From assembly GCA_964016885.1 (NCBI GenBank), contig OZ024740.1, forward strand, positions 281,480,001 to 281,544,000: a stretch of DNA of 64,000 nucleotides, read 5' to 3'. This DNA comes from Eledone cirrhosa. Its lineage: Eukaryota. Below are positions 1 through 26,907 of this stretch, piece by piece. The notes beneath the pieces were generated by a model, which saw only the letters and a program-made list of their open reading frames with translations, ran no database searches and was not told where the DNA came from. The first letter of the stretch is position 1. The number at the start of each line of letters is the position of its first letter. A program made the position numbers and the translations under genes.

Positions 1-572
1 TTATTAATTTTAGTTTCAGTTGTGGTGGTGGTGACGTCAGTGGTGTTCGGTGTGGAAGATTCCATTTTGGTTGAAATCATTTCGACATAACGAGTTGATT
101 TATTTTTTCCTGTTGTTTCTGTTGTCGCGGTGGTGTTGGGGGTGGTGGTTGTCGCGCTGGTGGTGGTGGTGGCGGCTTTAAAACCTGCAGTCATTGGTAA
201 TGGCGGGAAATGAATGTCTGCCTGAGACAAATTTAAAATATTGCTACTGATTAAATTTTTAATGTTGGCAAACGTAGTAATATTTAAAATGGTGGTGCCG
301 GTGTGAGGTGTTAGTTTATGAGGAATAGCTCTCAGCTGCTTGGTGCAGAGATGATTTAGCCATTTTTTTTTCAAAGAAATTTTTTGATAATCATAAAAGT
401 TTAAATTTTGGGCACAAGGCCCCAATCTTTTTGGGTGTCCTTTTTGGAAAACAATGTATGTGCGCTTATATACAGTTAACAACAAAATTTTCCATAAATG
501 GCAATTTTTAACAAACGGAAACAACAAACCTTTGCGGAGCTCACGATGATACGATTTACTACGTAGGTCGCC
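1..572 (-). mobile_element. Inverted copy of the 5' region and ORF1 start of the Tx1/L1-like LINE at 24752-31990
   Basis: Near-exact reverse complement of 24752-25324; truncated by the window edge. Confidence 0.85.
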
Positions 573-690
573 AATAATATTAATAATAATAATAATAATA
601 ATAATAATAATAATAATAATAATAATAATAATAATAATATTAATAATAATAATAATATTAATAATAATAATAATAATACTAATAATAATA
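573..690. repeat. (TAA)n microsatellite; empty counterpart of the site holding the Dong element in the right arm
   Basis: Interrupted TAA run. In the mirror arm the same flanks are separated by the ~4.4-kb insert 20284-24675. Confidence 0.9.
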
Positions 691-2264
691 AAGCAACGTT
701 CACCAGAGGAAAGCTGCTGAAGAGTTCAGACATTAATCTTGATCGGGGGAACGTGATAAGAGAGCTTGATCAAGAAAAAACTTACAAATATCTAGGTGTT
801 TGTGAAGGAGACGGAATCAAGCACTCGACAATGAGGGAAAGGATAAGGAAGGAATGTTACCGCAGAGTCAGAGCAATCTTAAGAACGGAATTGAATGCAA
901 GGAATAGGATCGATGCCATAAACACGCTTGCCATACCAGTAGTAACCTACAGTTACAATGTCATCAACTGGTCAAGCACAGAGATCCGTAGGCTCGATAC
1001 AAAAATCCGAAAATTCTTAACCATGCACAGAATGCATCACCCTAAGGCAGACATAGATAGAATATATCTCCCTAGGAAAGAAGGAGGACGTGGGTTAATC
1101 CAGTTAGACATTGCGTTGAAAACTGCAACAATTGGATTATCCACATATCTAAGGGAATCACATGATTGGATGATCAAACTCGTTTTGAAACACGAAAGCA
1201 CCAAAAGATCATATTCCATTACAAAAGATGCACAAAGATACAGTAATGGACTACAAATTTCAGAAGTCCCATTTACTGCTGAAATGGAAAACACAGAAGA
1301 AGCAAAGCAGGTAAAAGTAACTGCAAAGAAAGAACTGCTACAGAAACTGGCTAAGAAATGGCAAGAAAAGCCTCTGTATGGAAAATACCCAGAGCGAGCT
1401 AACAATCCTGATGTTGACAAAACTTTAACCCATCAGTGGTTGGCATCCTCTGGACTGAAATCGGAGACTGAAGGACTGATTATATCGGCACAAGATCAGT
1501 GTCTGCCAACAAAAAATTACCAAGCCAACATAATAAAAAATGGGTGCAGCCCATTATGCCGTGTATGTAAAAAACAACCAGAGACCATTGACCATATAAT
1601 TTCAATGTGCAGTCCTATAGCTCCAACCGAATACCTAAAGAGGCATGACAGAGCTGCACAATACATACATTGGATAATGTGTAAGCATTTTGACCTGCCC
1701 CATCAAAAGAATTGGTGGGAGCATCAACCACCTCCCATACTTGAAAAAGATCACATCTCAATCTTGTGGAACTTTAGCATCCAAACAGACCGAAAAATAG
1801 ATGCAAATAGACCTGATATAATATTGAAGGACTTTCAAAGGAGGGTATGCCTGCTAATTGATATGTCTGTTCCAATAGACAAGAATGCATCTATAAAAAC
1901 ATTTGAAAAATTGAGCAAGTATAAGGACCTGGAGATAGAAATTGGAAAAATGTGGAAATTGAGAACTAAAACAATACCAGTGGTTGTAGGCGCTCTGGGA
2001 ATGATACCTAAGGGGTCTAACGACTACTTATCGCAAATCCCAGGAAACCCGCGTATAGGAGAAATACAAAAGATAGTACTAATGGGAACTGCCCATATAC
2101 TAAGGAAGATCCTGTCAATATAAGTACATCACAAGTCTAAACACTAAGGATGCATGTGTGAATATGTATGTTCTTTCTTGAACATGGCGGACCTTGTTGT
2201 CTCTTGAGGTCACTGGTTGTGACTTGGTGATAACTCGTATGAACATAAAGCAAGATAAATGCAA
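691..2264 (+). mobile_element. 5'-truncated R4/Dong-like non-LTR retrotransposon (family B)
   Basis: Flanked by (TAA)n on both sides; encodes the end of RT, CCHC (CRVCKKQPETIDHIISMC), RHD and an RLE endonuclease (RPDIIL...LLIDMSVP); short 3' UTR then TAA tail. Confidence 0.9.
753..2123 (+). pseudogene. C-terminal part of R4/Dong RT-RLE polyprotein (456 aa open, lacks RT core)
   Basis: YKYLG, GGRGL, CCHC, RHD and PD..D motifs; the frame starts at the truncation point, not at a real ATG. Confidence 0.88.
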
Positions 2265-24675: not shown

Positions 24676-25094
24676 ATTATTATTATTATTATTATTATTA
24701 TTATTATTATTATTATTATTATTATTATTATTATTATTATTATTAATATTATTGGCGATCTACGTAGTAAATCGTATCATCGTGGGCTCCGCAAAGGTTT
24801 GTTGTTTCCGTTTGTTAAAAATTGCCATTTATGGAAAATTTTGTTGTTAACTGTATATAAGCGCACATACATTGTTTTCCAAAAAGGACACCCAAAAAGA
24901 TTGGGGCCTTGTGCCCAAAATTTAAACTTTTATGATTATCAAAAAATTTCTTTGAAAAAAAATGGGTAAATCATCTCTGCACCAAGCAGCTGAGAGCTAT
25001 TCCTCATAAACTAACACCTCACACCGGCACCACCATTTTAAATATTACTACGTTTGCCAACACTAAAAATTTAATCAGTAGCAATATTTTAAAT

Positions 25095-26907
25095 TTGTCT
25101 CAGGCAGACATTCATTTCCCGCCATTACCAATGACTGCAGGTTTTAAAGCCGCCACCACCACCACCAGCGCGACAACCACCACCCCCAACACCACCGCGA
25201 CAACAGAAACAAAAGGAAAAAATAAATCAACTCGTTATGTCGAAATGATTTCAACCAAAATGGAATCTTCCACACCGAACACCACTGACGTCACCACCAC
25301 CACAACTGAAACTAAAATTAATAATAACAAAAATAACAATAACAACAACAGCAACAATGACATTAAAAAAACCACCCTGAGTTTTGCCAGAGTAGCAAAA
25401 CAGTGCGAAGCATATCAGGTAACTCAGGAGGAATTAGAAAATGCCAAAAAAATGGTAAAGAAAGATGGTACAGGGTCAGGCTCCCCCCCCCCCCCCCCAC
25501 ACACACACACACCACGCCCCACCTAATAAAATGGAGCATCGGCGCCTATGCACCGTGTCGTATCGAACAATTAATGTAAAATCGCGCCGAGTGGAACGGG
25601 CATCCGAGTCCCAAATCCAAAAAGCTTTGGGACATGTGTGGGCAAGAAAAACCCACATCAGACGTGGGCAGAAGTATGGAACCGTGGACGTGTTCTTTGA
25701 AACACCAGAGGAGGCTAGAGAACAATCCATGTCCCCATTAACAAGTGACGACTTCACACTCGTCCCAAGCTATTGTGGCCAGAGACTCGTAATGATCAGG
25801 GTGACCCACGTTCCACCGGCCATCGAAATTCCCTGGCTAATAGCGGCCGTCCTCGCCGGCATCGAAGCCAACACAAAGATAATAGCAATAGCAAAAGAAA
25901 AGCAGGAGAACTGGTCCGGATCTGGGATGGAGCTCCTGATCCAAGCGGACCCAAAAAGCATTGAGTGGATCCCAGAGGTAATAGACCTCACTGACGGCAG
26001 CCACCTCACCGTAATTGTTGAGGGCAGAAGGCCTAGGTGTGTCGTTTCTGGTGAAGGAACCCACCTAAGGGCTTTCTGCCCTCAGGCTAAAAGGTTGAGG
26101 CCACCTCTCCTACCCACCCCAGTGACTCAACCATCAACACCACCAGTAGCAGAGATTGCAGCAACAACTGTAGCAGCAACAACAGAAGCAACTATAACAG
26201 CAACAACCCCAGCAACAGTAGCAAAACCAACACCACCACCATCCAACGCTTCAGAACTAGCACCAGCGCCTACGCCATCCACCACGCCACAACCAAAACT
26301 AACGCCTGTGGAGGATTTTCCACTCCCCGGCCTATCACAACTGGAGACAGATTGTGACGACGAGGAGTGGGAAACTGTATCAGGAAAAAAGAAAAAAAGA
26401 AACCAAAAAAGAAAAAATTCTCTTCCTTCCCCCTCCAAAAACAAAATACAGAGGGAAACAAATAAATTAACAAACAAAAAAGTTAGGACAGATATGCCAC
26501 CATCCACACCAGCATCACCAACCCCATCACCACAAACACCAACACCATCACCATCATTAACCCCAACACCACCATCACAAACGCAAACGAAACAAAACAA
26601 CCAAAACCATACACACTACACAGCATTAAATTTGAACAACAACCAATTATTACACTACATGCAACACAACACCAGCATCACAGAAAAAGACTACACAACA
26701 ACCCAAAAATTCACACCACCTTCACACATACAAATCACACGCATCACACAGAAAACGTACATGACACTAAAACAAAAATTCCCCAAAGACATCGAAGACT
26801 TCCGACAAGCACTCTCCAGGAGGATTTATAAGGACATTCTTCCTGAGGAGGCCACAAGCAGTGAAAAGGATGGAAAAACCGTCCTTCCTCTACGAGAAGT
26901 AAGGTAA
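25095..26907 (+). pseudogene. LINE ORF1 (gag-like), broken at a poly-C/(CA)n slip near 25482-25512
   Basis: SFARVAK motif, VIVEGRRPRC..SG...H....CP degenerate zinc knuckle, Pro/Thr-rich linker, WETVSGKKKK; lies directly upstream of the APE ORF. Confidence 0.75.

Follow-up and report, generated by a model that had tools for sequence, protein, structure and literature searches.

A multi-kilobase palindrome in the Eledone cirrhosa genome is probably an old DUP/INV-NML-DUP rearrangement in a nest of Penelope-like elements

A 64-kb window of the 3.0-Gb Eledone cirrhosa assembly (contig OZ024740.1; C1:281,480,001-281,544,000) holds a multi-kilobase palindrome surrounding Penelope-like elements (PLEs). 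We analyzed this window together with 80 kb on either side, numbering upstream positions as zero or negative. The locus is probably an old, local DUP/INV-NML-DUP (duplication, inverted normal segment, duplication) in a PLE nest, a rearrangement class already known from human genetics, and the retroelements likely supplied inverted repeats for the event rather than doing the copying. The assembled order is L a c' b' a' c R, in which segment a occurs twice, b once and c twice (a 1-2-1-2-1 pattern) and two new junctions, J1 and J2, are present. This pattern, with one junction in an inverted repeat and microhomology at the other, is the one that characterizes DUP/INV-NML-DUP. On balance, we favor a single germ-line event of this class, produced by two replication template switches, one guided by homology and one by microhomology, from an ancestral order L a b c R that we infer. 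The segments are as follows.

-2553..4909 (in-window part 1..4909), no strand: left arm c', from self-comparison, beginning upstream at junction J1
5031..11221, no strand: segment b', the single-copy core, inverted relative to the ancestral locus as reconstructed
11221..13220, minus strand: segment a', inverted copy of upstream segment a, with the end of a pseudo-long terminal repeat (pLTR) of PLE family N, a microsatellite and the long arm of PLE family Z
16704..27903, no strand: right arm c, running on natively into a Tx1-type element past 27903

Masked self-comparison, with divergence counted outside microsatellites, pairs positions 1-572 with 25324-24754 (99.0% identity), 692-2587 with 20207-18312 (99.6%), 2743-2873 with 18130-18000 and 3614-4909 with 18000-16704 (98.7%). 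The first-pass annotation of this DNA had described at least 6 kb of left arm, unrelated flank included, as mirrored with scattered single-nucleotide differences, and this description holds: arms c and c' differ at 50 of 6,173 aligned bases (0.81% substitutions). The mirrored arms are thus real in the assembly and, once upstream sequence is included as that annotation had proposed, larger than claimed, reaching -2553 on one side and 27903 on the other; they are not, however, the product of one fold-back. Polarization against family copies of the 36 substitutions in -2553..2873 places 16 derived states on the left and 16 on the right, with four left unassigned. The arms comprise 7.5 kb of old transposon debris, made up of the 5' part of a Tx1-type long interspersed nuclear element (LINE), a Dong/R4-like 3' fragment, pieces of short interspersed nuclear elements and low-copy DNA. 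Their main features, and the larger differences between them, are these.

567..2123, plus strand: 3' fragment of a Dong/R4-like LINE in the left arm, mirrored at 18776-20293, with 36% amino-acid identity to the full Dong-like open reading frame (ORF)
24754..27903, plus strand: 5' part of a Tx1-type LINE in the right arm, mirrored at -2553..572
3614..4909, no strand: low-copy part of the arm, in which 3620-4550 has exactly two full-length matches in the assembly, both in the window
2873..3613, no strand: 741 bp present in the left arm only; the corresponding deletion in the right arm, at 18000, shows 1 bp of microhomology
20285..24675, minus strand: full-length Dong/R4-like LINE, in the right arm only and inside (AAT)n, with a 1141-aa open frame
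13819..16559, minus strand: later Hydra-type PLE in the right-hand (TA)n, with a CxCX5C linker and inverted ends 99.5% alike

The 741-bp gap represents a deletion from the right arm, because family copies cross its 2873/2874 border in seven of seven cases and matches cross 3613/3614 in five of five. Positions 2873-3612 had been called unique; a family of 2,882 candidates accounts for their first 321 bp, and the interval is largely high-copy repeat. The Dong/R4-like frame (20359-23784) is uninterrupted and differs from a copy 58 kb upstream at 16 of 2,014 bp (99.2% identity), consistent with a family that was probably active recently. The linker of the Hydra-type PLE carries the CxCX5C motif as defined in PMC8557442 (citations here and below refer to the sections of each paper available to us).

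Toward the center, the mirror breaks down. Positions 5996-6913 and 11985-12930 are different sequences, and a single fold-back centered on the N ORF was rejected, since its inner flanks are not mirror images. The second fold-back reported in the spacer does exist around the PLE ORF at 8122-10452, but the core is not a single PLE: 5707-5995 and 12465-13220 belong to a second family, Z, into which an element of family N is nested.

6846..11984, minus strand: family N PLE inserted in (TA)n, with a 3' pLTR (6846-8459), a 5'-truncated ORF (8122-10452) and an inverted pLTR (10465-11984)
5707..5995, plus strand: short inverted terminal arm of Z, at its tail-less end, identified by family comparison
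5996..6845, no strand: inner part of Z (X1 plus microsatellite), separated from 11985-12930 by the N insertion
5031..5836, no strand: left copy of the Z-end hairpin, enlarged by short units between (AT)n tracts
13089..13426, no strand: hairpin h'-(AT)37-U', 338 bp and near-perfect (-167.7 kcal/mol, z -38)

In other family N copies, the element end (about 6846/6914 here) adjoins (TA)n; because these copies run some 1.1 kb further 5', the window copy can be read as 5'-truncated, with an ordinary inverted pLTR. Its single ORF has a C-terminal GIY-YIG domain above its cut-off and an RVT_1 match (E 5e-5) below its own. The linker preceding the endonuclease is CX4CxxC (CGRSNCGTC at residue 646), an instance of the CX2-5CxxC pattern that is also found in Nematis and Naiad (PMC8557442), and N appears Neptune-like in its motifs. 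Two cysteines and one histidine of the endonuclease CCHH are present, the likely second histidine being a tyrosine in this copy and a histidine in the inverted copy. The window ORF is the most diverged of 31 aligned (1.06% from the column majority), and because each arm has diverged by only about 0.4%, the N insertion is older than the duplication. Family N as a whole is very young, the 30 other ORF copies all lying within 0.65% of the column majority and four of them within 0.05%.

Family Z has 1,464 candidates, and the ORF of another Z copy is 43% identical to that of N. At 8 of 18 other Z loci, the 5996-6100 piece follows the 12465-12930 piece inside one element, indicating that N landed in the inner microsatellite of Z. 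Half of these Z ends (9 of 18) bear a 38-bp tail, and none of the 18 bears a hairpin like the one in the window. The left hairpin copy (5031-5836) contains extra 76-bp units between (AT)n tracts that are absent from the right copy, perhaps as a result of hairpin slippage. An independent N pLTR insertion occupies almost the same position of a different Z copy (C3:344.51 Mb, locus L126), which suggests a preferred (TA)n for insertion inside Z. An inverted pLTR and a tail on one side only belong to the usual anatomy of PLEs (PMC8557442, PMC3846280, PMC11167929); like canonical Neptune-type insertions described there, N and Z have inverted terminal copies and lie in (TA)n, and the 38-bp tail on one end of Z corresponds to the 30-40-bp tail of those elements. 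This anatomy accounts only for the inner palindromes; the outer arms consist of host flank and are without counterpart at other copies.

The two junctions are defined by comparison of a' with segment a, which lies outside the window at -4590..-2552 and contains the Z tail, the Z long arm, a microsatellite and the first part of the N pLTR. The two segments differ at 16 of 1,347 positions. They have in common alleles that are absent from 17 of 17 outgroup Z rows (columns 191, 445 and 685), and others that are absent both from 44 of 44 outgroup N rows (columns 275 and 507) and from the other pLTR of the insertion; because these private alleles are common to both, a and a' are local copies of each other. 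The same alleles exclude independent insertions of a composite element, for which another Z copy at C3:344.5 Mb, with an N pLTR in a similar position, had offered a model. Divergence of a from a' is compatible with that of c from c' under one event (Fisher p = 0.20). At J1 (-2553/-2552; C1:281477447), the N pLTR is joined to the middle of a Tx1 ORF through a 2-bp microhomology, TT. The J1 sequence occurs once in the assembly, and the DNA on both sides of it is high-copy. Segment a ends in the Z tail, whereas a' ends instead in the other, tail-less Z end with its 338-bp AT hairpin; this difference places J2 in the Z end common to a and b, within about 13091-13225, where the inverted repeat measures 130-290 bp and is 97-98% alike over 289 bp. 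Judged from Z anatomy, the middle segment b appears to have been inverted.

A course of events that would yield this arrangement begins with the arrival in (TA)n of a family Z PLE whose ends were inverted and of which one was tailed; the family anatomy is observed and the order of the steps is our reconstruction. An N-family PLE with its own inverted pLTR would then have inserted into the inner microsatellite of Z, the tail-less end of which bore the 338-bp AT hairpin. A replication fork may have stalled or broken at this hairpin and then invaded the Z end's inverted copy some 8 kb distant, generating J2, after which some 16 kb (a, b and c) would have been copied backwards until a return by 2-bp microhomology inside the N pLTR generated J1. 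The opposite order of switches would give the same product. The arms would later have drifted by about 0.4% each, the right arm gaining the Dong-like LINE and another PLE and losing 741 bp. PLEs would, in such a scheme, provide the inverted repeats, with no need for reverse transcriptase in flank copying. If the rate in PMC13282606 applies (a Jukes-Cantor distance of 0.09 for 25 million years), the duplication is about one million years old.

Human DUP/INV-NML-DUP and DUP-TRP/INV-DUP (duplication, inverted triplication, duplication) rearrangements at F8, PLP1 and MECP2 (PMC10766186, PMC4352052, PMC11293582) have the same two-junction design, with one junction in an inverted repeat, and a two-step model of break-induced replication followed by its microhomology-mediated form (BIR/MMBIR) has been described for PLP1 and MECP2 (PMC4352052, PMC11293582). 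Example 39 in Table 1 of PMC10766186, at F8, belongs to the 1-2-1-2-1 class and has 'LCR; 5 bp' junctions (LCR, low-copy repeat); as here, the pattern is coupled to a few base pairs of microhomology at the other junction. In contrast to the human cases, the present event involves only about 16 kb, and its inverted repeat is a 130-290-bp retroelement end rather than a multi-kilobase LCR. It is also old, with diverged arms, lies in an invertebrate-type genome with no host gene seen, and is read from an assembly only.

The first-pass annotation correctly recognized that the inverted duplication extends past the PLE ends into kilobases of unrelated flank, but neither mechanism that it offered, a PLE-type fold-back or long 3' transduction on the one hand and a head-to-head haplotype join on the other, fits as stated. 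That PLE machinery itself copied the flank, whether by fold-back synthesis that overran the end of the element or by read-through transduction of 16 kb followed by local re-insertion, we regard as very improbable. Such an origin would explain why both junctions fall within PLE sequence and why few mutations separate N insertion from duplication (in the N part, two common to a and a' against five private to a), and PLEs do self-prime and can mobilize host DNA between pLTRs (PMC3846280). Against it count the broken mirror (5996-6913 versus 11985-12930), the duplication of a second segment and the outer terminus of the left arm, which lies within a Tx1 ORF, is joined through 2 bp of microhomology and shows neither a (TA)n target nor a tail or target duplication; moreover, a and a' share derived alleles absent from the other N pLTR, indicating that N was complete before copying. 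PLE capture of host DNA in Adineta vaga (PMC3846280) likewise leaves host DNA between PLE terminal repeats, but there the DNA moved to a new site with a target duplication, whereas the present duplication is local and inverted and ends in microhomology. A survey of 35 of the 38 other N loci listed, drawn from the 40 of 3,281 candidates that were scored (a sampling that favors young, long elements), took in mostly 10-14 kb of flank per side; at five loci one side or both were shorter, at 4-9 kb. None of the 35 has flank mirrored at 97.5% or more, including 18 flagged by script as carrying an inverted pLTR, whereas the window yields 5,828 bp in the same test. Three N loci show 0.9-1.2 kb mirrored at 89-97%, as expected for insertion inside older elements with inverted ends, and at locus C1_36, where the script had scored a neighboring N copy, inspection by eye of the intended one revealed no bracketing mirror. 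A low-copy flank mirror is absent from all six Z pair loci; an apparent second case at one of them (C2:3.79 Mb, 819 bp mirrored at 99.5%) was rejected as a high-copy repeat with 1,535 candidates. Exact-pattern searches for the Z-end hairpin found two other sites, and the one checked, which is not C1:302056238, has no flank mirror. With samples small beside thousands of copies, the survey excludes a routine PLE product and leaves room for a rare one.

A false duplication created during assembly is unlikely, although its predictions overlap with the data in several respects. If two haplotypes had simply been joined head to head through inverted ends, the mirror would not break off at defined points and give way to different DNA on either side. 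The artefact would instead combine haplotypes L b' a' c R and L a c' b' R, the assembler having switched between them inside the shared b'. In keeping with this, the 0.81% divergence and the insertion differences between arms are allele-like, the assembly holds no unplaced second haplotype of the arm, and left and right types are nearly equal in depth in a public sample, S2, their total of about 9 being compatible with a single diploid locus. The artefact would, however, require that one animal carry two inversions of independent origin and that the assembler switch within a span of only 6.2 kb, and no gap of undetermined bases is found anywhere in the 224 kb examined; substitution error also appears low, four of 30 other N copies lying within 0.05% of the majority, though polishing can homogenize repeats. 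A chimeric fold-back read is excluded by the whole-insertion differences and symmetric substitutions between arms. False duplications from haplotype mis-joins (PMC8081667, PMC9668749) resemble this locus in having two copies about 1% apart that are adjacent in the assembly; they differ from the locus in its lack of a gap, inverted orientation, homology-free junction and additional variants in read-derived contigs. A real duplication built in several steps, by crossover of two inversion haplotypes or by an inverted triplication of the ODIRA type (origin-dependent inverted-repeat amplification) that was later eroded by end joining or recombination, is slightly less probable still. The same junctions would result, such classes have been derived from eroded inverted triplications (PMC10766186), and a strong hairpin is on site; more events are required, though, and the 224 kb contains neither a remnant of a third b copy nor a closely spaced fold-back junction in flank DNA.

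The variants in S2 bear on whether two loci exist. Three S2 runs contain the low-copy arm, and contigs of runs X2 and X4 were compared over 3777-4569 (793 bp); run X1 and run X5, a restriction-site-associated DNA (RAD) run, give little or no cover of the low-copy arm, and bins 4801-4905 are uncovered in X2 and X4. The X2 contig is left-type except for C4367 and the X4 contig right-type except for A3925, and the allele pairs A3925+C3934 (9 bp apart) and C4367+G4385 (18 bp apart) occur in neither assembly arm. Because these pairs are closer together than the 31-mers from which the contigs were presumably assembled, they must come from reads. Contigs differ at 1 of 793 positions within a type and at 8 of 793 between types. 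Should S2 be the assembled animal, a diploid would carry three variants, which requires two loci; should it be a different individual, the two types reappear there nearly intact, the behavior expected of fixed paralogues. The argument could be escaped if two errors were made in assembly, or if two ancient inversion haplogroups exist and S2, too, is heterozygous for them. The finding in S2 of both types of arm, in each case as a variant that the assembly lacks, nevertheless favors two real loci, and we consider it highly probable that the duplication is real.

Several observations weigh against a real, one-event template-switch duplication. Contig depth is 8.4 and 7.9, about 9 for both types together, and low-depth calibrators range from 3.8 to 13 (5.9 for a 718-bp contig), too widely to fix a single-copy value. 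Among the matches listed in a search on J1 only, no read or contig spans that junction. Arm divergence of 0.8%, together with the presence or absence of insertions, also fits two alleles of a heterozygous animal. The ancestral allele is a reconstruction rather than an observed sequence, the homology at J2 is far shorter than human LCRs, and sequence does not separate template switching from other routes to the same product.

If real, the locus is a base-resolved example of a human-type two-switch rearrangement in which inverted PLE ends stand in for low-copy repeats, and a multi-kilobase palindrome with an 11.8-kb spacer has survived until its arms were 0.8% diverged. This suggests a possible, testable route to local segmental duplication in PLE-rich genomes. 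The evidence comes from a single locus made of transposon debris, where no host gene was seen, and no second case emerged from the survey. Among the titles and abstract openings listed in our literature search, none describes such a rearrangement at a PLE end. It is doubtful that the inverted repeats and AT hairpins built in their thousands by nested PLEs in this genome, perhaps after cleavage by a PLE endonuclease at (TA)n, give rise to DUP/INV-NML-DUP events again and again across the genome, each copying kilobases of host DNA, with this locus as one preserved example.

The repeats of the region are Dong/R4-like, Tx1-type and Penelope-like elements with AT microsatellites, and the repeat make-up tabulated for octopus in PMC13282606 appears similar. 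No host gene was found among frames of at least 150 aa at the locus. An Rfam scan of 1-28000 detected no hammerhead; its 86 matches at E up to 1 are all microRNA models on AT tracts, under the gathering score. Elsewhere on the contig, at C1:36.482-36.491 Mb (locus L105, about 1265-10000, and the start of L106), some 28 tandem copies of a 310-bp unit, 99.4-100% alike, close in a 99.7% fold-back a few kilobases from two N elements; the array may have formed from a pLTR by a rolling-circle route or may reflect faulty assembly. Within the window, 32740-35905, 54888-59341 and 59444-62529 are PLE relics with inverted ends 90-96% alike around remnants of Hydra-type endonuclease. Two Tx1-type copies (29566-31981 and 37308-39715), 95.9% alike, flank a PLE tail to tail and are probably independent insertions, because nearby family copies are 94-97% alike. 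A 40-bp minisatellite of about 13 copies occupies 52998-53533.

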